From the NCBI GenBank assembly GCA_029742005.1, contig GCA_029742005.1_4113.1: a stretch of 64,000 nucleotides of DNA. One strand, given 5' to 3'. Positions 3,862-24,592 of this stretch are shown piece by piece. This stretch comes from a phage. Made by a program: the position numbers and the translations under genes. The notes beneath the pieces are model-generated. The model ran no database searches. It saw nothing but the letters and a program-made list of their open reading frames with translations, and had not been told where the DNA came from. Positions within the stretch are counted from its first letter, which is position 1. Each line of letters starts with the position of its first letter.

Positions 3862-4152
<291 letters not shown>

Positions 4153-7370: not shown

Positions 7371-7385
7371 ATATAGGTGAATGCA

Positions 7386-9062: not shown

Positions 9063-9073
9063 CAAGAGCTTTT

Positions 9074-9493
9074 ATGAAAACAATCAAAGTGCATTTCAAA
9101 GACACATGGACAGAAGTGAGTACTGGTAATATTCAGGATATTTTATATAGTACTGAAACTATTCATGTTTATGATGAAGATACTGCTGCCGAGCAGTTAA
9201 AAGTTTTGCATCGTAGTGTTGGTGAGCACACTGAATATGGCATTAAACATACTCGTGAATTACTTAATACTAATCACATTGAAACCCGTAAAGCAAACTT
9301 ATCAAAAGAAGAAATGTTCGATTTCATCCTGAACCATAAAGTTCATATTGAGCCTGATGGGTCTATATGGGAGAACACTGCTGGACAAAAAGTGCTGAAA
9401 AAATATCATGTTTCAATTGATAATGTAAAAATGTCAGGGTATGATTTGGAAGATGCAATTAATGAATATGTATCTAGGCAGAGGGCAAATTGA
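9074..9493 (+). CDS. hypothetical protein (139 aa)
   Basis: ORF track. Confidence 0.5.
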   Translation: MKTIKVHFKDTWTEVSTGNIQDILYSTETIHVYDEDTAAEQLKVLHRSVGEHTEYGIKHTRELLNTNHIETRKANLSKEEMFDFILNHKVHIEPDGSIWENTAGQKVLKKYHVSIDNVKMSGYDLEDAINEYVSRQRAN

Positions 9494-9864
9494 TGAGCTT
9501 GATAACATTTACAATTATTTGTTGCATTACTATTGTACTTTGTCGCCTGATTCATGTATACTCATATCATAAAGCGTTGCGAATCGAACAAGAGATTTAC
9601 AACGAAAACCGAGAACCAGAACCAGTCAAGAAGCCACCATCACCTTATGGGTTGAAACGTGAGATGCATTCTCAAAGTAAAAAGTGGGGTTATGCAATTA
9701 CTAAAAATGGCTACATCTATACTGCAAGTAATGGTTATTTTCAAATTCACCACGAATTAGAAGTGGCAGTTCAAATTTTGTGGGAGATGGAGGACATTGG
9801 TGGTTATGAGCGTACTAAGTTTGAATTCATATCAAATGATCCAGGAACTTCACGAGAAACATGA
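9490..9864 (+). CDS. hypothetical protein with N-terminal TM helix
   Basis: ORF track; hydrophobic N-terminus LITFTIICCITIVLC. Confidence 0.5.
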   Translation: MMSLITFTIICCITIVLCRLIHVYSYHKALRIEQEIYNENREPEPVKKPPSPYGLKREMHSQSKKWGYAITKNGYIYTASNGYFQIHHELEVAVQILWEMEDIGGYERTKFEFISNDPGTSRET

Positions 9865-10009
9865 TATAATTGTTGATGTGGAGAAGAAGGAAGTCGTTAT
9901 GAAAAAGCAAGCATATAGAATTTTAGAAGACTTCCATCTAAAAGCATTTATAATGAAGTTCTGTACAGATGAACATCTTACCGGACGAGTAATACGTAAG
10001 GAGTTGTAA

Positions 10010-10351
10010 ATGAACTTAAGTTCAACAATTCAGTACTTGAGCAGTAACTTCGAGAAAATTATTTCTCGCGGTGGGATGATTGTACACCCAGAAACAGAGG
10101 AAATGTACATCATTGGATTTGATAAAAATTCTTATGATCAAGTACTTGTAATTTCCAAGTTAGAAAGTTATAATGAAGTTGTTCAGTTTTGCTGTACCGA
10201 ATTTGGTATCTATATTAAAGACGCTGAAACTAATACAATTTCGCATTATTTTTACCACACACTGATGGGTACTAAAGACTTCGGCTTGAAGTTCGATGAT
10301 TTAGTACAATGTCACTATATGTTTAAAACCTTCCCAGCTAGTGGGCATTAA
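10010..10351 (+). CDS. hypothetical protein (113 aa)
   Basis: ORF track. Confidence 0.5.
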   Translation: MNLSSTIQYLSSNFEKIISRGGMIVHPETEEMYIIGFDKNSYDQVLVISKLESYNEVVQFCCTEFGIYIKDAETNTISHYFYHTLMGTKDFGLKFDDLVQCHYMFKTFPASGH

Positions 10352-10364
10352 GGAGTATATCAAT

Positions 10365-11153
10365 ATGAGCAACATTTTCTTCAAAACTATTTCTTTCAAA
10401 AAAGCATCTTACTCCTACGCCTACGTTGATGGTAAAGTGCTTAATATTGTACTGGATGGTGTTGACGTACCAGTTGAATTTAAAACACATGAAGAAGCAG
10501 TTGAAGGTGCTAAAGAATTGAATTCAATTCTTAATGGTGAAGTAAGTCAAAAACAACATGTAAAATCTGATTTAGATGTACTTTTGGAAAAAATCAAAAC
10601 TGGTGAAGTATTAGAAATTTTAGACAACTGTAATGAAAAACTTCGTAATGTAGTTAATAATGTTCGTGACCAGATTCAAGAAAAAGCACTAGAGCAAGCA
10701 TTCAAACATGTATCCAAGAATGCTGAATCTCGTATTGACGGTATGGTTAAAAATCTTGATGATGTACTATCTCATCTCTTTACTAAAGAATACGAACAAG
10801 AAGTTGAAGAAGAACCAGTAAAAGAAACTAAAAAAGAAAAACGTAGCTTTGGCTCAGGTGATGATGTGTTTGGTTTTACGAATGTCCGAACAAGTGCAGA
10901 TGAACCAAAAGAAATTAGTGAGATGCTCATTGGTGACATGACAACTAAGCAGCTTCGTAATGAAATTGACAAGTTTGTAACTAGTTGTATCAAATCAGAA
11001 CGTGCACAAAGTATGTTTAAAAGCATTAGTGAGAACTTTGGTCCAGAAGCAACTGAGCAGGCACTAACTGCATTTAAAGAATTGATTTATAATGTAGCCA
11101 TTAGCAATCCAGATAAAACACTTGAAGAAGTTCTACGTGACAATTTCAAATAA
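10365..11153 (+). CDS. hypothetical acidic protein
   Basis: ORF track, start moved to ATG after AAGGAG RBS (MSNIFFK). Confidence 0.55.
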   Translation: MSNIFFKTISFKKASYSYAYVDGKVLNIVLDGVDVPVEFKTHEEAVEGAKELNSILNGEVSQKQHVKSDLDVLLEKIKTGEVLEILDNCNEKLRNVVNNVRDQIQEKALEQAFKHVSKNAESRIDGMVKNLDDVLSHLFTKEYEQEVEEEPVKETKKEKRSFGSGDDVFGFTNVRTSADEPKEISEMLIGDMTTKQLRNEIDKFVTSCIKSERAQSMFKSISENFGPEATEQALTAFKELIYNVAISNPDKTLEEVLRDNFK

Positions 11154-11167
11154 TTAGATAAAATTAA

Positions 11168-11193
11168 AGCCACTACAATGTAGTGGCTTTTTT
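11168..11193. terminator. bidirectional rho-independent terminator between convergent genes
   Basis: Perfect palindrome GCCACTACA-TGTAGTGGC flanked by A-run and T-run. Confidence 0.65.
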
Positions 11194-11195
11194 TA

Positions 11196-12350
11196 TTATG
11201 CGTTGTAACCAACTATTACGACTGAGCAGTCAAGCGGTTCTACTACTTTAAGAATTACATTATCATCTTCATCCACTTGTATTTCACTATGAACTACATG
11301 ATTGTCTGAAGAATATAATTGAACTTGTGGTAGTGCTTTACCATGTTCAGTTACTGGAACTGAGATAGAGTACATAGAGTCTTCACCGAGAACCCACTCA
11401 CTTAAAGTATATTCTTTATGGAAAGGAGTAGTATGCAGTGTTTTTCCGATTATACTCAAAGAAACAGGTAAATTATCAGTTTGATACACAGTAATATTAC
11501 CTTCTGCGTCTACAGAAAGATCTACACCAACTTGATATAAGTCACCACTGTATGCTTGAAGTGCTAAGTACTGTCCACGATCATGAACATCAAATGGAAC
11601 AACCGCAGAAAATACACCTTCCGAAACAGGTTCAAATTGGGATAGAAGAACTGATGTAACAAAATCAATATCCTCACCACTTTCAAGAACATCAAATTCC
11701 ACCACTTTAGTGTTATAATATGGAGAAGTGAGCGTAGCAGTACCTTTCCCTGATTGTGTGATAACATCAACTGGAATTGTAAATGCATCATTAACAAATT
11801 GGGTAGTAAAGTATTCTGTCCCGTCTGGTAATACGATTGTTATTACCATACCGTTAGTATCAATTTCTGAACCAGTGTTGAATAATTTACCACTAATTGA
11901 GTCATTACCAACAAATACTGGTGAAATGAGAATATTATCTATATCACGATCTATAATACCACATTCAGGTGTATACATATGATACAAGGTTTGTGAACTA
12001 CCTAAAATTGTTTTATGTAGCATAAATTTATATACAAATCCAGTATCAGTTTCTTGTGGCTCTTCAGAATATCCACGAACAAAGAAACAATTTTTATTAA
12101 TTTCACTTAATAGTTGGTCATTAGTTTTATTGTAATTTAATAGATAACCTTTATTATCTTTAGTTGTTATTTGTACTTTACGATATATTATATTAGTTCT
12201 TGGATCAATTAAATCATATAATCTATGGCTTCTTTGGCGATAGATTCTAATATTTTTTAGTCTAGTTCCATCGTTGAGGATTGCACCATCAACAACATAA
12301 CCACATTCACCAAACTTATAGTGTCCAGCCGCAGCAATTGACCTTGACAT
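11196..12350 (-). CDS. hypothetical protein (384 aa), only minus-strand gene in the first 42 kb
   Basis: Long ORF on minus strand bracketed by terminator and intergenic promoter region. Confidence 0.6.
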   Translation of the reverse strand: MSRSIAAAGHYKFGECGYVVDGAILNDGTRLKNIRIYRQRSHRLYDLIDPRTNIIYRKVQITTKDNKGYLLNYNKTNDQLLSEINKNCFFVRGYSEEPQETDTGFVYKFMLHKTILGSSQTLYHMYTPECGIIDRDIDNILISPVFVGNDSISGKLFNTGSEIDTNGMVITIVLPDGTEYFTTQFVNDAFTIPVDVITQSGKGTATLTSPYYNTKVVEFDVLESGEDIDFVTSVLLSQFEPVSEGVFSAVVPFDVHDRGQYLALQAYSGDLYQVGVDLSVDAEGNITVYQTDNLPVSLSIIGKTLHTTPFHKEYTLSEWVLGEDSMYSISVPVTEHGKALPQVQLYSSDNHVVHSEIQVDEDDNVILKVVEPLDCSVVIVGYNA

Positions 12351-12466
12351 TTATCCCTCCATTGGTATAATTATTATAACGTATTTATTATGAATATCCA
12401 AAAAATGAGCTTGACTGGTGTATGATTTGGTGTTATCATGTAGTGAATGAATAATGAGGTGTTTTT

Positions 12467-13051
12467 ATGAATGTTATTGATAATAGATTAGTACTGAAAA
12501 ATGGAAAAATGACTGTTAAGTTATATAAAGATGAAGCAGATTCTTTTATGGCAAAAGCGATTGAAAAATCAGAACGATATAAACTTTTGGCTCCAGCCAG
12601 TAAATCGCCATATGGTTTTAATCATGCACATAGTCATTTTGTTGGTATGGTATGTGAGCACGCATCTTTAGTACTTTTTAATGAAATTGAAAACAATACT
12701 GGTATTAAACTTAATATCGATCCAGCATTCCAAAATGAAGCACGTGACGGTGAATGTGATATTAAGGTAAACAACCTTCGTATTGAAGTAAAAGGTATCA
12801 AGTATAAATCATGGACTGACTTTGGACCATGTGTTAGTACTCGACAGTTAAAAAATATCCAGAAAAAAGCTGACGTAATACTATGGGTATTGTATAATGA
12901 GAAAAAACAAGAGTTCACGTTTGAGGGATTCAACTATGTAAAAGATATTAGTTCTATCCCAGTTATCCTCACTGGTGTACCAGGGCGACCAATGATTGAA
13001 AATCACCCAGTACTCGGTATTATGAAACCACTACAGGAGTTACCATTGTGA
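12467..13051 (+). CDS. hypothetical protein, possible PD-(D/E)xK-like nuclease
   Basis: ORF track; weak motif ARDGECDIKV...EVKG. Confidence 0.45.
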   Translation: MNVIDNRLVLKNGKMTVKLYKDEADSFMAKAIEKSERYKLLAPASKSPYGFNHAHSHFVGMVCEHASLVLFNEIENNTGIKLNIDPAFQNEARDGECDIKVNNLRIEVKGIKYKSWTDFGPCVSTRQLKNIQKKADVILWVLYNEKKQEFTFEGFNYVKDISSIPVILTGVPGRPMIENHPVLGIMKPLQELPL

Positions 13052-13275
13052 TTACTGCAACTGTATATCAAGATATCAATGAAGAATTTCATTCTAAAAT
13101 TGCGTTCTTATCATTTCCTGTACTCCCAGCAGTTGGGTCAACGTTGAATCTTACCATTTGTGGTTTTGAGAAATATTATAAAGTACTAGATATTGAGTAC
13201 TGTGCTGATGTATATTCATGTAATAGTGAAATTGCAATTCCAGTATCAATCGATATTATTGTAAAAGAGGTTTGA
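13048..13275 (+). CDS. hypothetical protein (75 aa)
   Basis: ORF track; coupled start. Confidence 0.45.
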   Translation: MITATVYQDINEEFHSKIAFLSFPVLPAVGSTLNLTICGFEKYYKVLDIEYCADVYSCNSEIAIPVSIDIIVKEV

Positions 13276-13277
13276 TT

Positions 13278-13733
13278 ATGTTTAAGAATTTTATGGTTAT
13301 CGTAGCAGTACTGTTTGGTACATCATGTTTCATTTCCCCAGTACACGCAGAAGAACAACGTCAAACTATTAAAACTATTGGGACTGGTAAAACTCCCCCT
13401 AAACGTACTGCTGAAGAATACATGCCTGAAATGCGTGAACGTTATCGTCAGACATACAGGGAAAAACATGCTAATGATAAACCCATCAAGAAGCATAAAT
13501 GGGAAGTTGTTAAATCTCCTTCATTTTGTGCTGGATATGCTAAAGTAAAGATTGAGCAGCACAAAAAACAGTACTATAAAGATATGTATTACTTCTATGA
13601 CTCCAGAATTTCTGACACAGATATGATGGCAGGGAAGGTTGATAAAGAAGAATTTCTACAAGGCTATGATATGATGGACGATGACAAAATCATGGAATGC
13701 GTTGAAGTGTATGAAAAATACAGAGGCTTCTGA
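13278..13733 (+). CDS. secreted hypothetical protein
   Basis: Signal-peptide-like N-terminus MFKNFMVIVAVLFGTSCFISPVHA. Confidence 0.55.
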   Translation: MFKNFMVIVAVLFGTSCFISPVHAEEQRQTIKTIGTGKTPPKRTAEEYMPEMRERYRQTYREKHANDKPIKKHKWEVVKSPSFCAGYAKVKIEQHKKQYYKDMYYFYDSRISDTDMMAGKVDKEEFLQGYDMMDDDKIMECVEVYEKYRGF

Positions 13734-14209
13734 TGTTAACAATAGTGTTGTTGGTAAGTCCATTTGTGTATTTTGTGCTGTATAATATTTTTAGTAATGC
13801 TAATCATTTTAAATATGCACAAACAATTGCAAAACATGAAGGATTTTGGAATTTTTTCCCAGCGTTACTATGCTCATATCTATACCATGAACGCTATTTC
13901 ATTTTCCCTGAATATAAAAATTATGGTTATGATTCTAAAGTAAATGGTATAATTGAGTACTGTATAAGAAATTATCTTAATAATAATGATAACGTCCAAG
14001 TAAGAATAGGAAATGGTAATATACCAAGAATAGTTTTCATACCTGATATACAAGACCCAATATACTTATATCCATATGATTATAGTATTAGTGTAGGTTG
14101 TTCGATACATGGTAGTAAATCTATGTACGATTACTTTATCTTACCACCAACACAAATTAGATTAATAGAAAAATATTTGATGGAAAAGTTTGACAACAAA
14201 GATTCTTAG
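13733..14209 (+). CDS. hypothetical protein with N-terminal TM segment
   Basis: ORF track. Confidence 0.5.
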   Translation: MLTIVLLVSPFVYFVLYNIFSNANHFKYAQTIAKHEGFWNFFPALLCSYLYHERYFIFPEYKNYGYDSKVNGIIEYCIRNYLNNNDNVQVRIGNGNIPRIVFIPDIQDPIYLYPYDYSISVGCSIHGSKSMYDYFILPPTQIRLIEKYLMEKFDNKDS

Positions 14210-14250
14210 TATTATAATTAACACACCAAGTAACCCAAGGGGGATGGAAA

Positions 14251-14709
14251 ATGGATGTATTAGCTACAAATTTCAAACGTAATGTTGAAGAGCGTGAAGG
14301 TTATTTTAGTATTAGTGAAGTTGTCGATGACAATTTTAAACAATACATTTTTAATAGTGCAATTAAATTAAAATGCACAAAGGATTCACCTGATCGTAGC
14401 TTTACTAAATGGATTGCATATTGGGAGGATTCACCAGTTGCAATTGAAATGACTGTGATTACAACAGTACTTGAAACTGGTTACATCAAAGCCATTATAG
14501 TTGATAAGAAAGTCCGTACTCTTGATGAAATTAATCCATATCCAGCCCGAAATTCTAAAGTTTTTGGTGTGTTGGTTGATGGTAAATTTATGATAGAAAA
14601 AGATGCAAAGGAATATGTAATTAATAAACTTCAAACTACATCAGAAAAAAAGGAAGTATTGGATCAAAACTCTGTTGATGCAATCAAAAAAGCATGGGGA
14701 CTAAAGTAA
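14251..14709 (+). CDS. hypothetical protein (152 aa)
   Basis: ORF track; GGGGGA RBS. Confidence 0.55.
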   Translation: MDVLATNFKRNVEEREGYFSISEVVDDNFKQYIFNSAIKLKCTKDSPDRSFTKWIAYWEDSPVAIEMTVITTVLETGYIKAIIVDKKVRTLDEINPYPARNSKVFGVLVDGKFMIEKDAKEYVINKLQTTSEKKEVLDQNSVDAIKKAWGLK

Positions 14710-14710
14710 T

Positions 14711-15133
14711 ATGTTCACACTAAGTAATGCAAAATATCTTTTTCTTATTAGTATTATTGGTTGGGTTATGGCTCCAGTGCTAAATGCACTGGGGTTTTCC
14801 GATGAACATAAACTTTTAAATGTTTCAGGTTTAATTCAGGGTATTTCATGGTATACATTAATTACATTTTCAGTGTGCATCAATACATTTGCCCGTGAAC
14901 ATCGACGTTTGTTATATCTGAAAGTATTTGGAACTACCCGATATAGTTTTGTTTACACTTTCATTTTAGTACCGTGTATGTTATATGCATTTGTATTTGA
15001 TTACTATACATATCTATGGGTATGTGGAACTATGTTTGTTATGTTGGAATACATCAGAACTGTTCAAAACTCATATGCCGATGAATTTCATGATCTAGAA
15101 GTTAAACGAAAATTAACGGAGCTAAACAAATGA
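14711..15133 (+). CDS. integral membrane protein
   Basis: ORF track; multiple hydrophobic segments. Confidence 0.5.
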   Translation: MFTLSNAKYLFLISIIGWVMAPVLNALGFSDEHKLLNVSGLIQGISWYTLITFSVCINTFAREHRRLLYLKVFGTTRYSFVYTFILVPCMLYAFVFDYYTYLWVCGTMFVMLEYIRTVQNSYADEFHDLEVKRKLTELNK

Positions 15134-15555
15134 GAGGTTATAATAAGATTTGTATTTTTGTATTTTTAGTTTGTGCATTCAATTCGTTTGGTTACTACTG
15201 TACAGAAAATAATATTTCATATGGTTTAAATCCTTTGTGGTTTACAATTTCTAATGTAGCACAAATTGGTATTGCTCTTATGTCTGCACTTATGTTCTGT
15301 CCAATTGTCACTATGGATACTGATCATGAAAGGCTTGGATTTCTCCGTGATACTGGAGACGAACCTTACAGTAGATTGATTGTGTTGTATCCATTTATTG
15401 TTATTTTAGGTACTAACATCCAACTTGGGTCATTATCTAATAGTGTTACATCAGCAGCTATTGCTATATTTGCATTCACATTTTTTATGGTACACAAATC
15501 AGTACTTAATTGGTATATCACAAAAATGGCAGAAGAAGGTACTAAAAATACTTGA
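15130..15555 (+). CDS. integral membrane protein
   Basis: ORF track; multiple hydrophobic segments. Confidence 0.5.
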   Translation: MRGYNKICIFVFLVCAFNSFGYYCTENNISYGLNPLWFTISNVAQIGIALMSALMFCPIVTMDTDHERLGFLRDTGDEPYSRLIVLYPFIVILGTNIQLGSLSNSVTSAAIAIFAFTFFMVHKSVLNWYITKMAEEGTKNT

Positions 15556-15580
15556 CATAATTTAGTATGTTATATATAAT
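15552..15580 (+). promoter_or_regulatory. sigma-70-like promoter
   Basis: TTGACA-N17-TATAAT. Confidence 0.5.
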
Positions 15581-15614
15581 TATTTTGTTAAAAACAAATT
15601 AGAGTAAGGAACTT

Positions 15615-15866
15615 ATGAACATCGATAAGGTCAAAGAACTTAGTGCTGCACTAATTAAGAATGAAGAAGTTTGTGAAGAACTTCGCAGTACTATCAAAGT
15701 TGAGTACGCACGACTCCAAGGTATGCTTCAAGAATCAGAATGGGTAGTAACTAAATCTATCGAAGCAATCTATAAGGATATCGAATCCCTTTTCAACAAG
15801 AAAAGTAAGATTGAATCTGATTCATATAACAAACGTAAAGAGTTATCTACTGCACTTGGTATCTAA
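15615..15866 (+). CDS. hypothetical protein (83 aa)
   Basis: ORF track; AAGGAA RBS. Confidence 0.5.
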   Translation: MNIDKVKELSAALIKNEEVCEELRSTIKVEYARLQGMLQESEWVVTKSIEAIYKDIESLFNKKSKIESDSYNKRKELSTALGI

Positions 15867-15940
15867 AAGTATTTGACATAACAAATAATATGGAGTACAA
15901 TGTGCTCCTAATTTAATTATCAGCTAAAAAGGAAAACATT

Positions 15941-16201
15941 ATGAAATCTATTCTCGTTGCAGTTAACCTGGTTGCTTCCCCATCTTTCAACTTCAAACAA
16001 GTTGTTGCTGATAATCTGAAGAAGATCTGTCCAAACGCTGAATTAACTTTCTGTGTGTTTGATTCAGAAAAAGTAACTAAAGTTGATCTAAACTATCTTT
16101 TGAACGAAGTAAAAAGCGTTTCTGGTGAAAGTAACTTAAAAGTTCTTCATGATATTGCTGATGATTATGATGATACACTTGTAATTTCGGAGAAATTCTA
16201 A
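15941..16201 (+). CDS. hypothetical protein (86 aa)
   Basis: ORF track; AAGGAAA RBS. Confidence 0.5.
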   Translation: MKSILVAVNLVASPSFNFKQVVADNLKKICPNAELTFCVFDSEKVTKVDLNYLLNEVKSVSGESNLKVLHDIADDYDDTLVISEKF

Positions 16202-16206
16202 ATAAA

Positions 16207-16626
16207 ATGTTTAGATTTCTTCAGTACTTAATCATTAAGTTCTTTGGTTATCATACGATTGAAGGAAAAGCTACACTTGCACATAAAATCTTTGTAGCAT
16301 TATGTACGGGTGATTATGACGTATTGAATAAGTACTGTAAATCGCAAGCATGTATTGATATAATGGCACTTCGTATCTATGAGTGCCAGTTCAATAGATA
16401 TAATTTTTACCAGTACAGATTTGATAAAGAAGAATTTGATAGCATCAAAATGCTAAAGAATTTATGTAACAATAAAAAGAATATGCATATATCAGAATTT
16501 GTTGCTTTGTATTTTTATTTAAAAAGTTCATTGTATATGAACACGATGCAAAGATTCGATACTAGAATTAATGTATTCACCGATAAAGAATTTTATATAT
16601 ACGATAAATTCTTAGATAAGGTTTAA
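16207..16626 (+). CDS. hypothetical protein (139 aa)
   Basis: ORF track. Confidence 0.5.
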   Translation: MFRFLQYLIIKFFGYHTIEGKATLAHKIFVALCTGDYDVLNKYCKSQACIDIMALRIYECQFNRYNFYQYRFDKEEFDSIKMLKNLCNNKKNMHISEFVALYFYLKSSLYMNTMQRFDTRINVFTDKEFYIYDKFLDKV

Positions 16627-16627
16627 T

Positions 16628-17125
16628 ATGACAACTGTTTATATTGATAAACGATTAAATTTATTGATTACCGATTCTAGAGTTACGTCAACTATACCAC
16701 GAAACTTATTTGGTTTTTTTCCACTAAGACCAAAATATCAATATGGAGTTGTTAATCAAAAAACTTTATATGTACATGACCGTTTATTCAGTGCTAGTGG
16801 GGCAGTAAGTGAAATTGATAAAGTACTGGATTGGTTAATTAATAAAGTACCAGTTATACCTGACAGAAAGTTAAGTTGCCATTGTGTGCTTCTTTCTAAA
16901 GATTATGTTATTCATATGATTTTAACTAAAGGAAAGTTTATTAAAAAACTTGAATATCTACATGAAGACTACACTTTCTTTATGGGAAGTGGTGGAGAAT
17001 ACATGGTAGATGCTGCTATTCATGAAGAACATACAACTTTATATGATAAAGTGTTTAGTACTTTCATGGATGTGCATAACCATGATTGCTTCACAGATGA
17101 TAATATTAATGTATATCGATTTTGA
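16628..17125 (+). CDS. hypothetical protein (165 aa)
   Basis: ORF track. Confidence 0.5.
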   Translation: MTTVYIDKRLNLLITDSRVTSTIPRNLFGFFPLRPKYQYGVVNQKTLYVHDRLFSASGAVSEIDKVLDWLINKVPVIPDRKLSCHCVLLSKDYVIHMILTKGKFIKKLEYLHEDYTFFMGSGGEYMVDAAIHEEHTTLYDKVFSTFMDVHNHDCFTDDNINVYRF

Positions 17126-17146
17126 TTTCGTCATTAGGAGATGTAA

Positions 17147-18112
17147 GTGAAAAAGCTTGATTTAAATACAATTGCCGAAGAAGTTCTGGATGAATGTTTT
17201 GCTAATGAAGAAGTCAACACACTAGAAGCCTTAGATTTCGTTGAAGATAAAGATGAAAATGAAGGTAAAGTACAAAGCAGTTTCAAATATAATATTACAC
17301 TTAAGCGACCACCAAATGTTTCCAATGAAGATCTAATTCGTGATATTCAAGCTGGTATCAATGTAAAGAAAAACACTGAACTGTTAGTTCGTTACAATTA
17401 TGGACTGATTATTGATGTAGCAAGTAAATGTACTTGTTATATCCCATTTGAAGATAAGATTTCATATGGTGTTGAGGGGTTCATGAGAGCACTAAAAACC
17501 TTTGATCTTAATAAGAATGTGAAGTTCATTACCTATGCTTCTTCTAGTATTTACATGACAGTTTATAACGAAAGTTCTGACGCTAACTATATGGTACACT
17601 TCCCACGTTATATGAGTGTTCATAAGATCAAAGTAAAAAGATTCTGCCAGGAATATATGCGTAAACATGGTGTTCGCCCAACTCCTGAAATAATCTCAGA
17701 GGGTACTGGGATTGAGATTCAGCATGTTAATAATTGTTTGTTATTTCAAAGCGAATACACTTCACTGGATGCACCATTAGACGGTGTTACAGATGGTACA
17801 CTAGGTGACATTATTCATTCACCTGCTTCTGATTTTAACCTCAATGTTGATAGTATTCGTGCACCTTTACGTTATGCTATCAATGAACTGACTAACGAAT
17901 TGAGTACTAAAGAACGTGAGATTATCCAGCGTGTTCATGGTCTAGGTGAATATGAACCTGAAACGCTTCGTGAGATTGCTGATAATGGTTTTGTTGATGA
18001 TAATGGAAAATATGTTAAATCCCGTTCATCAATACACCGAAAGTACAGTGAAGCTATGCAAAAGCTTAAGAAGCTAGTACTTGCAAAAGGGTACGAATAC
18101 GAAGATTTCTAA
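17147..18112 (+). CDS. sigma-70 family RNA polymerase sigma factor (GTG start)
   Basis: Region-2-like LVRYNYGLIIDVASK and FITYASSSIYMTVYN, region-4 HTH-like LSTKEREIIQRVHGLGEYEPETLREIADNGFV...KSRSSIHRKYSEAMQKLKK; RBS TAGGAG before GTG. Confidence 0.65.
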   Translation: MKKLDLNTIAEEVLDECFANEEVNTLEALDFVEDKDENEGKVQSSFKYNITLKRPPNVSNEDLIRDIQAGINVKKNTELLVRYNYGLIIDVASKCTCYIPFEDKISYGVEGFMRALKTFDLNKNVKFITYASSSIYMTVYNESSDANYMVHFPRYMSVHKIKVKRFCQEYMRKHGVRPTPEIISEGTGIEIQHVNNCLLFQSEYTSLDAPLDGVTDGTLGDIIHSPASDFNLNVDSIRAPLRYAINELTNELSTKEREIIQRVHGLGEYEPETLREIADNGFVDDNGKYVKSRSSIHRKYSEAMQKLKKLVLAKGYEYEDF

Positions 18113-18120
18113 AGAAAAAA

Positions 18121-18146
18121 GGTTGGCATAAGCCAACCTTTTTTTA
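18121..18146 (+). terminator. rho-independent terminator
   Basis: GGTTGGC-ATAA-GCCAACC followed by TTTTTTT. Confidence 0.7.
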
Positions 18147-18671
18147 TGGGATGAAGTAAAAGTTTGTGATATAATTATCTTGTACAATTCTGTTGGCATG
18201 ATATTCATGTACCTGATCCACTCGAAAACGTAGAGGGCAGTTGAGCAGTCCGACAGTGCGAACAGCAAAAGAAACCCGTTAGATGTGGGCATAGTTTGAA
18301 CCCCTCACGGCAATGCGGCTGTATAAAGAACCACGTTAGGATAGCTGGTGGTTCCTTGATAGACATATAAGGATAACACCTTACGAATTATCTAAGGGAG
18401 AGTTATCAAATTTTGTACAGGAAAGTTGCGTCCAGAATTTGAGTACTCACATTAAGTATTTGATTGCATAGATACTTAATGAAGATACACTATGTTTAAA
18501 AGTGTAGACCGTCATATGAAACTGAAGTAGAGAGAAACAGGATGACCCGCTTTCGCACTCGTTATGAGTAATCTTCAATGCAATAGCTCTGATACCATCA
18601 GCGTCAAATTTCCCTCCTTGTGGGGGGGGAAGAAAAATCCCTTCCTCAAATCCCGTCAATATTAAAAGTCC

Positions 18672-18700
18672 TTGACAGTTATTAATCATTCGCGTAGAAT
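18672..18700 (+). promoter_or_regulatory. sigma-70-like promoter
   Basis: TTGACA-N17-TAGAAT upstream of ORF 18765. Confidence 0.5.
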
Positions 18701-18764
18701 ACGTAGTATTAGAAGCGAACAGACATCTCTTCGAGATGGATGATTAACCATTAAGGAATATCAA

Positions 18765-18974
18765 ATGAATTCAGTAATCTTTTTAGTAGTCGCTTTCTCT
18801 GTTAATTCCGGTGTACAAATAACCCCAATGAATTCCATGAATCAATGCATAGCAGTACGTGATAGTACATACGAACAAGTAAACAAAGATATTTGGATTA
18901 CAGTTAATAAAGAACAAATGTGGTGTTACAATAGTAATACTAACACAAAGCTTATTGTAGGACAAACTCAATGA
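18765..18974 (+). CDS. secreted small protein
   Basis: ORF track; hydrophobic N-terminus MNSVIFLVVAFSVNS. Confidence 0.5.
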   Translation: MNSVIFLVVAFSVNSGVQITPMNSMNQCIAVRDSTYEQVNKDIWITVNKEQMWCYNSNTNTKLIVGQTQ

Positions 18975-19201
18975 GTTATGGTGTTCGTTTTGAGATTCGT
19001 TCTATTGTCATCGATGCAGAGAAACAAGTATCGTTAGATGGTGATATACGTGAAATTTATCTATCATGTATCCGTGCGAAATCTGAAGCAGATGCCTTAG
19101 TACAAATGTATAGTTTTAACTTTTCAAATGGATTCTATTTGGTACGAGTTGTTGAAGTTAAAAAAGTAATTCTTGGTTGTTGCATAGAAGGAATAATGTA
19201 A
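18971..19201 (+). CDS. hypothetical protein (76 aa)
   Basis: ORF track. Confidence 0.5.
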   Translation: MSYGVRFEIRSIVIDAEKQVSLDGDIREIYLSCIRAKSEADALVQMYSFNFSNGFYLVRVVEVKKVILGCCIEGIM

Positions 19202-19990
19202 ATGAGCACTATCGATGAACTGATTCAACGGAATTCAAAATATTACCAACCATCAGAAATTGTGGATAACATTACTAAATCTGAGTTTGGACCGAACACA
19301 CGCAAACTCATTCATGTAATGTCACGTGATGGCTTTAAATGTGATTGTTGTGGTGAATCAAATGTAGTATTCACTTTACACAAGCACAGTACTAAAGAAC
19401 GTTATAAATTCAGACATTATGTACTTAAAGGGAAACGTCTTGTACGCATGACGTTAGACCATAACGTACTGGACTGTCTTCAGGGCGGTAATGATAAAGA
19501 GAACATGACTGCACTGTGTGAAGATTGTAACGCATTACGCCAGCATAAGTTTGCTGAATACAGTGAGTTTAAACACTGGTATCATAACGCGGATCGTTCA
19601 ATCGAGCCTGACGTTAACTACTGCTTCATTGAGTACATTAAGAATGCAAAAGATACATACATTCTTAAATCAATGTCACCTATTACCGTGTTTCCTGAGA
19701 ACCTATTCACTACATTAAAGAATAGTTTTATTGTAGGTGATATTGATGCATTCAAGTATTTTGACAAAGGTGCAAAACATTTTGAAATTCAATGTCTTAG
19801 TACTGCACTATGTGAACTCATTAAAATTTACATAAAAGAGTATTTGGGTATTGACAATGTACGTGTACCAGAGTATACTTTTTCTATTGAATTCGATTGT
19901 GAATCAATCAAAGAGTTTGGAATTCTTTTCAATAAACAAATAGAACTTGCAATTCAAAACGAAATCAAGTACTATACTACTAACATTTAA
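19202..19990 (+). CDS. HNH endonuclease-like protein
   Basis: CDCCGE ... LDHNVLDCLQGGNDKENMTALCEDCNALR motif. Confidence 0.6.
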   Translation: MSTIDELIQRNSKYYQPSEIVDNITKSEFGPNTRKLIHVMSRDGFKCDCCGESNVVFTLHKHSTKERYKFRHYVLKGKRLVRMTLDHNVLDCLQGGNDKENMTALCEDCNALRQHKFAEYSEFKHWYHNADRSIEPDVNYCFIEYIKNAKDTYILKSMSPITVFPENLFTTLKNSFIVGDIDAFKYFDKGAKHFEIQCLSTALCELIKIYIKEYLGIDNVRVPEYTFSIEFDCESIKEFGILFNKQIELAIQNEIKYYTTNI

Positions 19991-20005
19991 TCAGAGGAAA
20001 TTATC

Positions 20006-20188
20006 ATGCAAATCATCATTCTTATCGTTGGTATCATGTTAGGTGTTTATGGTCACTCATGGATGAACGAGAAGTTTCCTAATACGCGTCCTGAATATTG
20101 CAGTACTAATGTATTCCAGAATGGTGAGAAACCAAAGGAAAGTATTGGTAAAAAGCTGGACAAAGTACTTGATGTAATCAACGAATAA
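20006..20188 (+). CDS. small membrane protein
   Basis: ORF track; N-terminal TM MQIIILIVGIMLGVYG. Confidence 0.45.
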   Translation: MQIIILIVGIMLGVYGHSWMNEKFPNTRPEYCSTNVFQNGEKPKESIGKKLDKVLDVINE

Positions 20189-20197
20189 GGGGAAAGT

Positions 20198-20398
20198 ATG
20201 TTTAAATCAAATTCGAATGTTGGTAAGAAGGTTCAATTACTTGAGGATGTATCCACTCTGAGTGGGATTTTCCCAAGAGGTCACATCATGACTATTATTG
20301 CCGAAACATCCCGTGGTTGGGACTTGGAAGATGCTGATGGTAATCGCATCCTTGAGGCTGGCTTCTATGGTCATCGTGAATATAAAATTATCGATTAA
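20198..20398 (+). CDS. hypothetical protein (66 aa)
   Basis: ORF track. Confidence 0.45.
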   Translation: MFKSNSNVGKKVQLLEDVSTLSGIFPRGHIMTIIAETSRGWDLEDADGNRILEAGFYGHREYKIID

Positions 20399-20494
20399 GG
20401 ATATAAAATGATGTTAGAGGCTATCGTTGGTATTGTTAGTTTTAGTCATCTGTGTTGCTTGCTTTGGGTATATGATGATTTTTGGTGATTAATA

Positions 20495-20522
20495 CTTGAC
20501 AGAAGATATCAGTACTGTATAA
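20495..20522 (+). promoter_or_regulatory. sigma-70-like early promoter (class A)
   Basis: TTGACAGAAGATATCAGTACTGTATAAT. Confidence 0.6.
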
Positions 20523-20568
20523 TGTTTATATCAAACGAAATCCACTTTAACAAATGATAGGAAATATT

Positions 20569-20847
20569 ATGTCTTTTTCTAAAGAAGAACGTGACCTTAT
20601 TAAAAAAGCAATTTGGTTTTATGCTAATGAAGGGAAGTGCGATGAAGAAAAAGCACGTGAACTGTGTAATATCCTTGAGAAGAAACAAGAACTGAAAGTG
20701 TTTCGTATCCGTGATTTGGATGAAGGGGATCGTATTGTCCTAGCTGAAACAAAAGAAGAAGCAGAACAAATCTTCACTGATAAAAACGAAAATCCACATT
20801 GGATGGAAGAAGTCTGTGATGTTAAAAAAGGTACTTATATCGATTGA
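20569..20847 (+). CDS. hypothetical protein
   Basis: ORF track with start moved to MSFSKEER. Confidence 0.5.
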   Translation: MSFSKEERDLIKKAIWFYANEGKCDEEKARELCNILEKKQELKVFRIRDLDEGDRIVLAETKEEAEQIFTDKNENPHWMEEVCDVKKGTYID

Positions 20848-20872
20848 CAGTACTGAATAATAGCAGTATAAT
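20844..20872 (+). promoter_or_regulatory. sigma-70-like early promoter (class A)
   Basis: TTGACAGTACTGAATAATAGCAGTATAAT, 17-bp spacer. Confidence 0.55.
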
Positions 20873-20965
20873 GTTTATATCAAAGGGAATGCAGTGAAAG
20901 GAAAGACAGCATAATCGTACTCGTCACTGCGTTCCCGCCCTTTTAAATTAAATGAGGAATTAACT

Positions 20966-21274
20966 ATGTTTCAAACTAACACTCAAGGTTTTGTAATCAT
21001 CGATTTGAATCAAAACAGCGGTTATTGGATGAAACCTACTGACGCATGTATGCAGTTTGATTTCTTAGGTTACAGAATTAGTGTAAGTACTGGTGCTTCT
21101 GTACTGAGAGGTGGTTGTATCGTTGAACATCTGGTAACTGATCCAGAAGGTCGTGAGTATGAAATCGCAGGTTCAGTACAAGATGCCATTATGTTTGTAT
21201 GTCAGCGTGAAATGAATGGTTCGAATTCAAATGCACTGACTCATGCTCTTTCTCAAGAAGTGGAGGTTCGTTAA
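20966..21274 (+). CDS. hypothetical protein (102 aa)
   Basis: ORF track; GAGGAA RBS. Confidence 0.5.
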   Translation: MFQTNTQGFVIIDLNQNSGYWMKPTDACMQFDFLGYRISVSTGASVLRGGCIVEHLVTDPEGREYEIAGSVQDAIMFVCQREMNGSNSNALTHALSQEVEVR

Positions 21275-21519
21275 TGAAATATATTGTAGCAGTACTAATC
21301 GCTTTTCTACTCACTGCATGTGATGCTTCTACCAAAGAACGTACAAGTGATTTTGTTCTACCTGCTGAATTAAAAGAAGCAGGGTGTAAGATTTATCGTA
21401 TGCAACAAGATGGTGCTGGTGCGACTTTGTACACTGTGTACTGTCCTAATGCAAACACTTCTACGTCGCATACGAGTGGGAAAATTCGTATGAATACATC
21501 AGTGGTTCATGGAGAATAA
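21274..21519 (+). CDS. putative lipoprotein
   Basis: Signal peptide plus lipobox-like LLTAC (MKYIVAVLIAFLLTACDAS). Confidence 0.55.
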   Translation: MKYIVAVLIAFLLTACDASTKERTSDFVLPAELKEAGCKIYRMQQDGAGATLYTVYCPNANTSTSHTSGKIRMNTSVVHGE

Positions 21520-21521
21520 CA

Positions 21522-21890
21522 ATGAGTCTTGATACAACTCGTGCAGCAAATATCTTAGAACGTTTGAATGATGAAGAATATCTTGCTAATGCAAAATATC
21601 AGCTTGAAAAACTCATTCGAAATGTAAAATATGTTGATATCACTACACAGCTTCCACTAGATGAATATCATAAGCTAAACGAAAATATTGTATATCACCC
21701 AAATGAAATTTGGATTGAGTGGGAATCATGGACCCATTCGGTTCTCCGTATCGAGGGCTATTGTGTGAAATATGAAAGTTCACCAGGTGATTTTACAAAA
21801 AAACTGTCGATATTGTGCACTGACACACATGAAATAGTTGAGGTGAATTTGAATCATATGAAGGGTTGCCGTTGGGGAGATCTTAAATGA
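21522..21890 (+). CDS. hypothetical protein (122 aa)
   Basis: ORF track. Confidence 0.5.
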   Translation: MSLDTTRAANILERLNDEEYLANAKYQLEKLIRNVKYVDITTQLPLDEYHKLNENIVYHPNEIWIEWESWTHSVLRIEGYCVKYESSPGDFTKKLSILCTDTHEIVEVNLNHMKGCRWGDLK

Positions 21891-22162
21891 TTAAAAAACT
21901 ATTGACTGTGTTTGTTGTATTCTGTACAATGTTTCTTACAGCATGTAATGATGACGGCAGGTTTAGTGCAAAAGACTTAGTTCGTCAGGATTGTACATTC
22001 ACAGGCAAGTCTTTTATTAACGAGTATGAAATATGTACACAATCAGGTCGTATCTGTGGTGGTTGGGAAAAACGTCAGGAGCGATTGTATGTATATGAAT
22101 GCCCTGGACATCACAACAAAGTACTAAGCACACACAAACTTGTTTATGATAAGGTTGAATAA
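21887..22162 (+). CDS. putative lipoprotein
   Basis: Signal peptide plus lipobox-like FLTAC (MIKKLLTVFVVFCTMFLTACNDD). Confidence 0.55.
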   Translation: MIKKLLTVFVVFCTMFLTACNDDGRFSAKDLVRQDCTFTGKSFINEYEICTQSGRICGGWEKRQERLYVYECPGHHNKVLSTHKLVYDKVE

Positions 22163-22377
22163 TGACTACCAATGAAATGATGCAGGTTATTTGGGATAAA
22201 GGTTGTGATATTAAAATCACTAGTACTGATGTTCGTGTATTCAAAACTGAATATATGGAGTACTTGGATCTTGATACTTATAATAATATTGTATCAATCG
22301 AACACAAAGGTGCAGTACTGGAAACGATTGATGTAGTACTCAAGAAAGCTACCGACCTATTAGGAGTGGCAGTGTGA
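22162..22377 (+). CDS. hypothetical protein (71 aa)
   Basis: ORF track. Confidence 0.5.
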   Translation: MTTNEMMQVIWDKGCDIKITSTDVRVFKTEYMEYLDLDTYNNIVSIEHKGAVLETIDVVLKKATDLLGVAV

Positions 22378-22531
22378 ATAACAAAGAGTGGGAAGATTAC
22401 CGCAAGAAGTGCCGAGAGTTTGATAAAGAACTCACAGGTGCAGTGAACGCGGTAATGTGGGTATCTGCAATTATTGCAGTACTTGGTTTGGGTGCTATTA
22501 TTATTATTAATAAATTATTGTAAGGACTAAT

Positions 22532-22732
22532 ATGTTTACTTTATATCTTGCAGTAGTACTAACTAATGGTGAAATCACTCGCACCGTTGGTGAAGGTGTA
22601 TATAAAACACCTGAGCAGTGTTACTCTGCAACTCATTGGCCTCGTGATGCTGGTGATGAATCTCGCACTGAATACAAATGTATGAAGGTTAAAGGTGATT
22701 TTGTAAATCTAAAGGTTATTGAGACTAAGTAA
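22532..22732 (+). CDS. secreted small protein
   Basis: ORF track; hydrophobic N-terminus. Confidence 0.45.
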   Translation: MFTLYLAVVLTNGEITRTVGEGVYKTPEQCYSATHWPRDAGDESRTEYKCMKVKGDFVNLKVIETK

Positions 22733-23250
22733 TGGATATTAATGAGTTGTTGAAATTAGTGTTTAATCGTGAACGCCGCGATACAAGACCAATTGAATAT
22801 CAAGATGTGATACGCATTGAAACTGATTTCTGTTATGGTAAAACAACTCATGACCTTTTGAATCTCTCTGGAAAACGCTATGCTGATGTTTGTTTTTCAG
22901 AGAGAAGTGATGGTTCAGAAATAACGAGTACTGATATTGTTTGTTACGCACGCAGTGCTGATAAATCTTATGAAATAGAACTTATATATTCCCCTAGTTC
23001 TAAAACAAATCATCACCGCCATATTTTATATGATGTTTACACACCACCTGGTATTGCTGAATATTTTGTTATTGATTATAGTACTGAAGAAAATGTGTTT
23101 CAACAAAGTTTGATTCATAACTTTGAGGTGAATGATCCATTAGTACCAAAGTTGTTCAAACTACTTGACACCATAGATGTTGATTTTGAATTTGTTATGT
23201 GCATTAGAACTTCTTTATTCAATGAATTCATGGAACTTTTTAATATATGA
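22732..23250 (+). CDS. hypothetical protein (172 aa)
   Basis: ORF track. Confidence 0.5.
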   Translation: MDINELLKLVFNRERRDTRPIEYQDVIRIETDFCYGKTTHDLLNLSGKRYADVCFSERSDGSEITSTDIVCYARSADKSYEIELIYSPSSKTNHHRHILYDVYTPPGIAEYFVIDYSTEENVFQQSLIHNFEVNDPLVPKLFKLLDTIDVDFEFVMCIRTSLFNEFMELFNI

Positions 23251-23468
23251 ATAGATACTATGTTGTGTATGAACACGTCTCTGAATTTAATAACATACGC
23301 GGGTTTTCCAGAGTAGTCACCAAGATGGATGTATTCATTCGTGCTCTTAGTGAAGTAGATGCACTGTTTAAATTGTTTGATGAAATTACAAAGTATAACA
23401 CACCTAAAACACACCGCTATGTGGAAACTGTACATAGCATTATGCTAACTGAAAGTGATGAGGAATGA
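23247..23468 (+). CDS. hypothetical protein (73 aa)
   Basis: ORF track; coupled start. Confidence 0.5.
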   Translation: MNRYYVVYEHVSEFNNIRGFSRVVTKMDVFIRALSEVDALFKLFDEITKYNTPKTHRYVETVHSIMLTESDEE

Positions 23469-23471
23469 TAA

Positions 23472-23690
23472 ATGAATTTATATCTAGTTGAAGGTTTAGT
23501 ACAAGTCTATAAACCAGAAGGTGAAGGTCAACGTTTTTCACACGTAGAAGAATTTAAGTACGTTGTACAGGCTGATGGTCAGTACGATGCGGAAATTCAA
23601 GTAGATGAATCATTCCGTAAGAAAAATGAAATTGGTAAATTTCAATACCAGAACTTACAATATAAAGTATGGCCTAGTATAAATGACTAA
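23472..23690 (+). CDS. hypothetical protein (72 aa)
   Basis: ORF track. Confidence 0.5.
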   Translation: MNLYLVEGLVQVYKPEGEGQRFSHVEEFKYVVQADGQYDAEIQVDESFRKKNEIGKFQYQNLQYKVWPSIND

Positions 23691-23898
23691 GATGTGGTGG
23701 TGTCATGGTGTATATAACGTGTATGTAAATGGTAGATATAAAATGTCTAGTACCTATACAAGACGTGTTAATGCGAACAACCAAGTTGATGCTGCTTGTG
23801 AGATCATTGAGTGGTATGCTGAGTTCAATGCACCTGACTATATGTACGAAATAGTTACAATAAATGTTGTACAAATCGATACATCTTTGATACAATAA
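23683..23898 (+). CDS. hypothetical protein (71 aa)
   Basis: ORF track. Confidence 0.45.
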   Translation: MTKMWWCHGVYNVYVNGRYKMSSTYTRRVNANNQVDAACEIIEWYAEFNAPDYMYEIVTINVVQIDTSLIQ

Positions 23899-23929
23899 CC
23901 ACATCAAAAAATTGCATCTGAGGATACTT

Positions 23930-24592
23930 ATGTTAGTTAATCTTAATTTCATCACTTCACCTGACTGGGCATTACGTGGGGTTTCTTTAAACTTCAAGGA
24001 AACTATGTTTGATTACATTGGTGAGTGTACATTGGTAAATGCAACTTTTGACCCAAATCATCCGTTCTGGGCTGAAATTCATGATCCAACTGTAAACAAC
24101 AATACATCTGTTATGACTATTGTCCAGACTAAACATGCAGGTATCCTTGCAGGTTATCGATCTGCACATGCAATTGAACACTTCACTGATTACGATGTCG
24201 TGGATGAATACCCAATGATCCATGAAGATGGAAGTCTATACACATCTGAAGACTTCCGTGCTATCTTTAATAGTACTGATGATATTCTACCAAGTGGACG
24301 TCCACGTCCTGAGTCTTATCTTATGCATCCATCTTATGGTGTAGCAGATACGCTTGAACAGATTATGAATAAGTACAAGAACCTAATTGAAGGTCCAGAA
24401 GAAATTGTCCTGTGCTATCACCCAGTACTGAAGTCTGAACAACCAAAGGATGGTGGATGGCGTTGGCATAAGAATGGTGAGTATATCGGTACTAAACGAA
24501 GTAAAGAACGTTTTGAGTACTTGTATGATGAGCCAGATGTTGATGTGGTTTTGTGTTATAATTTTATTAAGGTGAAAAAGAAATGTATCTAG
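23930..24592 (+). CDS. hypothetical protein
   Basis: ORF track, start moved to MLVNLN with AGGATA RBS. Confidence 0.5.
   Translation: MLVNLNFITSPDWALRGVSLNFKETMFDYIGECTLVNATFDPNHPFWAEIHDPTVNNNTSVMTIVQTKHAGILAGYRSAHAIEHFTDYDVVDEYPMIHEDGSLYTSEDFRAIFNSTDDILPSGRPRPESYLMHPSYGVADTLEQIMNKYKNLIEGPEEIVLCYHPVLKSEQPKDGGWRWHKNGEYIGTKRSKERFEYLYDEPDVDVVLCYNFIKVKKKCI

Follow-up and report, generated by a model that had tools for sequence, protein, structure and literature searches.

The 64,000-nt stretch of phage DNA analyzed here (contig GCA_029742005.1_4113.1 of assembly GCA_029742005.1; hereafter the window) carries at 18147-18671 an intergenic island of about 0.5 kb, which is probably an independent gene for a structured non-coding RNA of ~430-540 nt and one paralogue of a multi-copy RNA family of jumbo phages. 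Across 34 copies of this family, compensatory change has kept about 100 base pairs, which make up 20 helices, five of them pseudoknot helices. The RNA is best read as a new class without a counterpart in the catalogued RNA families. A first-pass annotation, made from the letters of the window, had offered three readings of the island: a structured non-coding RNA, a decayed gene or a slippage-prone element. The first of these is strongly supported by the covariation, by a promoter that belongs to the RNA and by multi-copy conservation across genera.

Distribution and synteny of the RNA copies

A 3-kb query around the island is 99.2% identical to Escherichia phage 121Q, in which position 90267 corresponds to window 18147, and 97-99% identical to other Asteriusvirus genomes (~350 kb). 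Judged by this identity, the window comes from an Asteriusvirus, a 121Q-like jumbo phage of E. coli. Within Asteriusvirus, the island is better conserved than its flanks: it is 99.8% identical to that of PBECO4 and 95.8% identical to that of fEgEco12-like phages, versus 97.2% for the surrounding 3 kb and 89.7% for the surroundings, respectively.

With blastn, the central ~450 nt were matched in 62 phage records (71 at a looser cut-off), with three to five matching places per genome in the 62 records. All records matched are Rak2-like jumbo phages, the most distant of which fall to 67-75% identity, and their hosts are Escherichia, Salmonella, Klebsiella, Erwinia, Serratia, Pectobacterium, Cronobacter, Yersinia and, by label, Xanthomonas. 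Rak2 itself carries a divergent full-length member (E 4.5e-45). The sequence pattern of the RNA has no match in 185,579 bacterial and archaeal genomes, and as far as these searches reach the family is limited to the Rak2-like jumbo myoviruses, i.e., Asteriusvirus, Alcyoneusvirus, Mimasvirus, Eneladusvirus and uncultured relatives. Pattern scans of IMG/VR and metagenome contigs raised the set to 37 distinct copies, and the 34 full-length ones were aligned.

The 121Q genome, which was put together from nine stretches before its copies were counted, contains exactly four, all on the plus strand and all within unannotated gaps (Table 1). Their nhmmer E-values range from 1e-108 to 1e-118, and a covariance model (R1) recovers the same four; the core of the window copy (18182-18607) has an nhmmer E-value of 1.2e-116. 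No second copy was found inside the window by BLAST, profile hidden Markov model or covariance model. A site at window 29343 that resembles the start of 121Q copy c4 was rejected as an ordinary promoter and gene.

The locations of the copies are shared by different genera. In 121Q, in CBB, in Rak2 and in an uncultured phage, c2 is located between a gp415 homologue on one side and homologues of gp416 and a DNA methylase on the other, and c3 is flanked by endonuclease VII and baseplate-hub genes in 121Q, Yersinia phage fHe-Yen9-04 and metagenome contigs. The genes flanking c3 are on the minus strand, while c3 itself stays on the plus strand. By this synteny, the copy positions are conserved across genera and appear old. 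Copies a and b of CBB are 78% identical, whereas CBB copy b and its syntenic counterpart, 121Q c2, are 64% identical. Because copies of the same genome are more alike than syntenic copies of different genera, these results suggest that the copies evolve in concert within a genome.

Coding sequences that have been called inside RNA copies are probably spurious, for instance gp516 of 121Q (247799-247954, minus strand) and those in SD-2_S15, JP4 and WPEC3. Curated records leave the RNA loci empty, and UE-S1 marks part of c1 as a repeat_region. Accessory genes lie directly 3' of different copies as though the loci were preferred insertion points; they encode a DNA methylase, an ADP-ribosylglycohydrolase, a NUMOD4/HNH_3 homing endonuclease and an HNH endonuclease (Yersinia phage fHe-Yen9-04, other copies and window 19202-19990).

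The folded core

Helices were found by a covariation scan and mutual-information ranking on an L-INS-i alignment and were counted on a tool-made alignment (A1) of the 34 full-length copies, which holds 101 pairs in 20 helices (Table 1). On this alignment, 93.7% of the pair cells are paired, versus 38-42% in controls in which the 3' partners were slid by 1-3 columns. Pairs changing on both sides number 66 of 101 (19-24 in the slid controls), and the covariation score of 0.42 (0.06-0.10 in the slid controls) was reached by none of 500 shuffles. The column pairs with the highest mutual information are almost all fully canonical, and several are long-range. The five pseudoknot helices (P1, P7, P9, P14 and P15) are 93.5-100% paired, and the 3' domain alone is 94.8% paired, with 34 of its 41 pairs compensatory. 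As G-U cells outnumber A-C cells (204 vs. 63), the plus strand is the folded strand. RNAalifold on the full 769-column alignment returned fragments only.

In Rak2, which was not used in deriving the helices, each of the eight 3'-domain helices is retained and is formed from new combinations of pairs, such as CUUGAAU/AUUCAAG in P14 and AGGGG/CCUCU in P17. Salmonella phage Munch, which is outside the covariance model, scores 123 bits, and window 18447-18587 scores 110 bits with the same model. An optional module of ~35 nt (window 18409-18441; UUUGUACA[A/G]..AG.U.CGUCCA.AAUUUG) is gapped in 7 of the 34 copies, single in most, and occurs again inside the P18 loop of c4-type copies (121Q 247.8-247.9 kb). 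In some copies an extra 5' arm of the module, GGACGCAA, pairs with UUGCGUCC. P21, a local hairpin just ahead of the first direct repeat, has registers that differ between lineages and was excluded from the model.

The promoter

The first 29 nt of the island (18147-18175) are the putative promoter of the RNA (Table 1), from which transcription is predicted to start near 18182. TATAAT is found at an identical offset upstream of all 34 full-length copies with TG before it (extended -10, TGnTATAAT), and a -35-like TG(A/G)(A/G)A(C/T) box is conserved 17 bases upstream, with ATGAAAC in Mimasvirus and Eneladusvirus and TGGGAT in the window copy as variants. The RNA promoter consists of a normal -10 plus a non-canonical -35, and TGnTATAAT is enriched in the window (23 sites observed vs. 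10.0 expected). In phage CBB, TGAAACG has been described as the -35 of a second promoter class, discussed alongside a region of DNA-synthesis ORFs (open reading frames) (PMC5259590). Extended -10 promoters (TGATATAAT) are also found 10-12 nt ahead of three tRNA-Ser genes (window 1166, 2990 and 3882); the -35 box is TGGGAC at 1166 and 29343, TGGAC at 2990 and TTGAC at 3882. The promoter of the RNA is of the same general type as these promoters.

The next promoter downstream had been placed at 18672, where the promoter scan indeed finds TTGACA-17-TAGAAT (18672-18700; 11/12 matches). Copies c2 and c3 of 121Q keep TAGAAT or GAATAT in the hairpin arm that holds this -10 and lack TTGACA. In a-type copies (L013, L016, L017 and L019), a hairpin ending in AAGAAAATC lies ~40-110 nt past the second direct repeat and is immediately followed by a TTGACT-N17-TA(A/C)(A/C/G)(A/C)T promoter, the spacer of which holds a small hairpin, CTTGC-TTCA-GCAAG.

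The 3' tail

The tail comprises a first direct repeat (DR1), a G hairpin, a second direct repeat (DR2) and, as a likely 3' extension (18689-18738), a long and a small hairpin (Table 1). The two repeats co-vary. Among the 34 copies, column pair 423/476 reads UU in 28 and CC in six, column pair 427/479 reads CC in 33 and UU in one, neither is ever discordant, and the variable middle base is identical in both repeats in 25. Both repeats are CUUCAAG in Rak2 and UUGUCAG in one uncultured phage. Mutual information across the same copies revealed no third segment co-varying with DR1 and DR2. Directly after DR1 and ahead of the G hairpin, 13 of the 34 copies have a terminator-like hairpin with a co-varying stem, followed by a U run. 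Processing, or termination at more than one 3' end, may take place at the two repeats and at this hairpin. The predicted long hairpin follows DR2 in all 22 copies folded, differing in sequence between them, and could be a processing or stabilizing element.

The run of eight G, which the first-pass annotation had located at 18626-18633, is present four bases earlier, at 18622-18629, and is the sole G or C run of at least 6 in the window. The G hairpin (helix 20) is 94.1% paired, with mainly C-G to U-G changes. In 121Q, the strict G-hairpin motif is confined to RNA copies, three of which have it and the fourth of which has a variant; eight G6-or-longer runs are found in its 348 kb, and four of them are inside RNA copies. 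Comparison of the tract between isolates, a check proposed at the outset, found G6 in 121Q and UE-S1, G7 in PBECO4 and one metagenome contig and G8 in the window, differences to which homopolymer sequencing error could contribute. The U-containing 5' arm UUUCCCUCC can, as read from its sequence, absorb extra G as G-U pairs, and the variation in length looks tolerated rather than regulatory. The proposal of a slippage-prone element thus holds insofar as tract length varies, but the tract is outside any ORF or promoter spacer and ends 43 nt upstream of the nearest -35.

Comparison with catalogued RNA families

A covariance-model scan for known RNA families had likewise been proposed, and no Rfam 15 family was found on the island. 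At gathering thresholds, Rfam 15 yielded six tRNAs only in the whole window; at E<=10 over 17800-19000, only weak terminator-like small-RNA matches at the sigma-gene terminator; and at E<=5 on ten divergent copies, no shared family. ROOL, GOLLD, OLE, HEARO, RNase P RNA, group I/II introns, tmRNA and 6S RNA gave no Rfam 15 match, and ARAGORN identified seven tRNAs and no tmRNA in the window. A group I intron was rejected, as the island is intergenic, has a promoter of its own and lacks an Intron_gpI match. A full-text literature search found no prior description of the RNA, and a large survey of viral candidate structured RNAs reports motifs of 29-151 nt only (PMC10690425). The RNA has the attributes of an ornate phage RNA: it is large, phage-encoded and non-coding, with a covariation-supported fold that includes pseudoknots.

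The locus

Upstream of the island is the gene for a sigma-70-family factor (17147-18112; Sigma70 regions 2, 3 and 4 matched), which is complete and is closed by a terminator. The strong terminator that had been noticed there is readable at 18120-18146, though it was absent from the output of an automated terminator scan. Downstream, several small ORFs in a row start at 18765 and are followed by 19202-19990, an HNH endonuclease gene by the 121Q annotation.

The GC content of the island, first judged by eye to be higher than that of its surroundings, is 40.4% versus 34.3% for the window, 31.9% for the 2 kb upstream and 34.2% for the 2 kb downstream. This is the 95th percentile among 525-nt windows (~1.7 standard deviations above the mean), i.e., elevated and not extreme; the maximum in the window, up to 48% at ~44300-44700, is well above it. 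The description of the island as free of plus-strand ORFs stands, as none reaches 60 aa and a single one of 33 aa is found at 18564-18665. Three ORFs are on the opposite strand as described, only the first of which (18074-18292) overlaps the terminator. The boundaries 18147-18671 need revision at both ends: the 5' end is promoter, and conservation runs past 18671 to the hairpin at 18689-18719, which overlaps the TTGACA-17-TAGAAT site.

Table 1. Features of the RNA gene and its surroundings. Positions are those of the window, except for the 121Q copies
Feature	Position	Strand	Basis and remarks
Intrinsic terminator of sigma-factor gene	18120-18146	+	AGGTTGGC-ATAA-GCCAACCT then T run, by eye; context, outside RNA
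Putative RNA promoter	18147-18175	+	-35-like TGGGAT (18147-18152), 17-nt spacer, extended -10 TGATATAAT (18167-18175)
Structured RNA core, P1-P19	18182-18607	+	Alignment A1; ends at first direct repeat
Pseudoknot P1	18190-18194 (CUGUU) with 18252-18256 (GACAG)	+	5/5 pairs change on both sides; 93.5% paired
Hairpin P3	18245-18247 with 18257-18259	+	Loop holds 3' partner of P1
P4	18262-18266 with 18318-18322	+	Encloses P5 and P6; 100% paired, 4/5 pairs compensatory
P5	18276-18279 with 18307-18310	+	100% paired
P6	18287-18289 with 18301-18303	+	Weak: 62.5% paired; 13/34 unpaired at first and third positions
Pseudoknot P7	18313-18315 with 18364-18366	+	100% paired, two pairs compensatory
Hairpin P8	18328-18334 with 18348-18354	+	95.7% paired, four compensatory
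Pseudoknot P9	18339-18342 (P8 loop) with 18390-18393	+	97.1% paired, three compensatory
Hairpin P10	18368-18372 with 18379-18383	+	
P11	18400-18403 with 18445-18448	+	91.9% paired; encloses optional ~35-nt module
P12	18409-18413 with 18435-18439	+	Within optional module (UUUGUACAGGAAAGUUGCGUCCAGAAUUUG); weak: 81.3% paired
3' domain	18450-18584	+	P13-P19
P13	18450-18456 with 18475-18481, 18458-18460 with 18471-18473	+	
Pseudoknot P14	18463-18469 (AUUGCAU, P13 loop) with 18578-18584 (AUGCAAU)	+	99.2% paired, 6/7 compensatory
P19	18486-18491 with 18501-18506	+	
Pseudoknot P15	18511-18515 with 18542-18546	+	100% paired
P16	18523-18527 with 18573-18577	+	99.4% paired
P17	18530-18534 with 18550-18554	+	100% paired
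P18	18557-18559 with 18567-18569	+	
DR1, direct repeat (CAUCAGCGUCAA)	18596-18607	+	Co-varies with DR2
G hairpin, UUUCCCUCC-UUGU-GGGGGGGGAAG	18609-18634	+	3' arm is the G8 run, 18622-18629
DR2, direct repeat (AAUCCCGUCAA)	18649-18659	+	Co-varies with DR1
Sigma-70-like site, TTGACA-17-TAGAAT	18672-18700	+	-10 within 5' arm of conserved long hairpin
Long hairpin, UUCGCGUAGAAUAC-GUA-GUAUUAGAAGCGAA	18689-18719	+	Likely 3' extension, predicted fold
Small hairpin	18724-18738	+	Part of likely 3' extension
Minus-strand ORFs	18074-18292, 18205-18366, 18447-18689	-	ORF list; no Pfam match at E<=1
Copies in 121Q	c1 90.3 kb (window locus), c2 192.8 kb, c4 247.5 kb, c3 326.6 kb	+	nhmmer, covariance model R1

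Comparison with known systems

ROOL is a large phage/prophage RNA with multiple pseudoknots, for which no protein partner has been identified and whose function is unknown; GOLLD is a large structured phage/prophage RNA, also of unknown function, whose expression rises during phage lysis, and both assemble without protein (PMC12286853). The jumbo-phage RNA, like ROOL, appears to be encoded by a non-coding gene of its own, and covariation supports an elaborate fold that contains pseudoknots. ROOL is often near tRNA islands, and the window has seven tRNA genes 13-18 kb upstream of the island. Unlike ROOL, which is found in rumen or Lactobacillales phages, the jumbo-phage RNA is found in enterobacterial jumbo myoviruses, has no Rfam match even at E<=10, is present as three to five diverged paralogues per genome and has a distinctive tail in which two co-varying repeats flank a G hairpin. 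GOLLD is often >800 nt, compared with ~430-540 nt for the jumbo-phage RNA, which lacks an Rfam match to it, and the secondary structures of the two are unrelated.

In the related jumbo phage PA5oct, RNA-seq revealed four plus-strand non-coding RNAs of 236-619 nt, two of which are abundant (PMC7318152). Two of these, ncRNA001 and ncRNA002, were rejected as homologues, since PA5oct 7000-24000, where both are encoded, has no similarity by profile hidden Markov model or covariance model R1. Eight conserved motifs checked in the same region were all absent apart from one GATAGA hexamer.

Proposed mode of action

We propose that the transcript is made probably by the host RNA polymerase, perhaps with a phage factor, and that it would fold into a compact core (18190-18584) carrying the 3' tail of DR1, G hairpin, DR2 and long hairpin, in which the G8 tract would be a structural arm. 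The genes 3' of the paralogues vary, including those annotated as HNH endonuclease, N6/N4 DNA methylase, ADP-ribosylglycohydrolase and NUMOD4/HNH_3 homing endonuclease as well as ones of unknown function, and 121Q c3 is followed by no co-directional gene. These differences, together with a density of tertiary pairing like that of ROOL and GOLLD, suggest action in trans. We see the chances as evenly balanced that the RNA is a stable particle working in trans via its three-dimensional fold, either as a protein scaffold or as a self-assembling RNA. Antisense pairing does not seem to be its mode of action. A more tentative possibility is that the fold itself is the active agent, either as a ribozyme acting on the co-varying repeats to process its tail or as a self-assembling particle. 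For self-assembly, each paralogue would keep a private kissing code. Such a code is proposed because the four copies in a genome differ in P14, the helix between a loop and a distal segment; that every paralogue has a P14 sequence to itself does not demonstrate pairing between molecules. The three to five copies would evolve jointly with a phage partner common to them all.

Several points weigh against an independent RNA gene. The existence of the transcript, its ends and its stability are deduced from the DNA, and the 3' boundary is provisional. The window copy has no intrinsic terminator of its own, so its transcript could read into the downstream genes, which fits a leader. The helices were derived by scanning the very sequences in which they were later counted, which is why the out-of-sample checks with Rak2 and Munch matter, and the shuffle control overstates significance because the sequences are related; the slid controls, Rak2 and Munch reduce this circularity without removing it. 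The fold of the single sequence is unremarkable (minimum free energy z-score of -1.56, with 4 of 100 shuffles folding equally well), as is expected of a pseudoknotted RNA. Finally, the evidence fits a protein scaffold, a self-assembling RNA and a ribozyme alike.

The copies could instead be replication origins, although we consider this improbable. A promoter-driven, non-translated transcript would form a persistent RNA-DNA hybrid seeded by the G run on the C-rich template, and phage RNase H would cut the hybrid to prime the leading strand, in the style of T4 oriF/oriG and of the ColE1 primer RNA, RNA II; the direct repeats would be iteron-like. The phage has a T4-type replisome, RNase H and a UvsW-like helicase, and the three to five dispersed copies are all oriented like most genes. 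G6-G8 runs are as rare in 121Q as described above, with half of them in RNA copies, and the TGAAACG -35 class of CBB was described near DNA-synthesis ORFs (PMC5259590). T4 has at least 5 origins, of which oriF and oriG each consist of a middle-mode promoter and a downstream element where the transcript forms an R-loop, and oriE has 12-nt direct repeats (PMC3016281). The likeness extends to promoter-driven, non-translated transcripts, to a G run that could nucleate a hybrid and to several dispersed copies per genome. However, T4 R-loop origins depend on an A+T-rich unwinding element and form R-loops irrespective of specific sequence (PMC3016281), whereas the RNA element is GC-richer than its surroundings (40.4% vs. 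34.3%) and has an intricate conserved fold, with selection on ~100 RNA base pairs, including five pseudoknot helices, that a primer would not need. In 13 of the 34 copies, the G run is preceded by the terminator-like hairpin, and within a genome the repeats vary from one paralogue to the next, which would not be expected of iterons bound by a single initiator. The cumulative GC skew of 121Q tracks gene orientation with no inflection at the copies, which is uninformative as a test. We judge it rather unlikely, too, that the element is a cis-acting leader of ~0.5 kb, a sensor or processive-antitermination element with the 3' tail as expression platform. No terminator separates the window RNA from the ORFs that start at 18765, a co-directional gene begins ~30-170 nt past the tail in most copies, and the two identical repeats could alternate on one partner, given that GACGA of the Mimasvirus type can pair with UCGUC of either repeat. 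This alternate-pairing partner is, however, missing from the Asteriusvirus copies, including that of the window. The genes downstream of the paralogues are unrelated, 121Q c3 is between minus-strand genes without a co-directional gene after it, the terminator-like hairpin is inside the tail in 13 of the 34 copies, and the downstream genes of many copies have a TTGAC-type promoter of their own.

Self-processing, in which the core reads A(U/C)C..CGUCA(A/G) and cuts, or cuts and joins, at both repeats, releasing or removing the segment with the G hairpin, is in our view distinctly unlikely. An architecture with multiple pseudoknots is typical of large ribozymes, and a single recognition element acting on both repeats would account for the joint variation of DR1 and DR2, seen at several positions in several lineages; yet no internal guide complementary to the repeats is conserved across all copies, no Rfam ribozyme family is matched, and independent changes in the repeats are few. 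Least probable by far is that the island has no RNA function, being a decayed protein gene, a DNA-level repeat or mobile element, or a locus at which the G tract is a phase-variable switch. Some automatic annotations call three to four hypothetical proteins across the island, the repeat_region of UE-S1 is at this locus, and the G tract varies between isolates. Nevertheless, the four ORFs of at least 30 aa have no match in Pfam at E<=1 (a search of Pfam only, large protein databases not being searched), the indels that separate the copies do not come in multiples of three, and no reading frame would be preserved across the G6/G7/G8 differences. The substitutions are compensatory for base pairing; together with the predominance of G-U over A-C cells, they show that selection has acted on the plus strand in folded form. 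Syntenic positions are conserved, neither terminal inverted repeats nor target duplications were noticed, and the G tract is in neither an ORF nor a promoter spacer. The decayed gene of the first-pass annotation is thus not supported.

Large RNAs with such dense conserved tertiary pairing are rare, and those that are understood have turned out to be ribozymes, sensors or unexpected assemblies. As several diverged copies are kept per genome, a strong and lasting need for the RNA is implied. Current annotations mislabel its loci, leaving them empty or filling them with spurious small ORFs. The RNA is present in cultivable phages of E. coli, Klebsiella and Salmonella that are under development for therapy, and it is open to genetics. 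If the copies were origins after all, the replication origins of this phage group would have been mapped for the first time, and the RNA would be a structured primer of a new kind.

Other features of the window

A tRNA-Ser gene at 3901-3992 (ARAGORN and 121Q annotation) has the anticodon ACT, which is unusual for a phage tRNA. A composite of GGTTGACTTCGGTCAGCC-TTTT-TGNTATAAT recurs three times, at 26603, 38126 and 38709; in it, the -35 TTGAC is inside a GC hairpin with a UUCG loop, so that a terminator-like hairpin is fused to a promoter. An 18-nt word repeats at 61283, 61960 and 63047, ~0.7-1.1 kb apart, in a region that in 121Q is an array of paralogous ORFs of ~60 aa (gp249-265). The array is followed in 121Q by 2 kb without annotation (135194-137161, ~window 63074 onward), where the window has ORFs.

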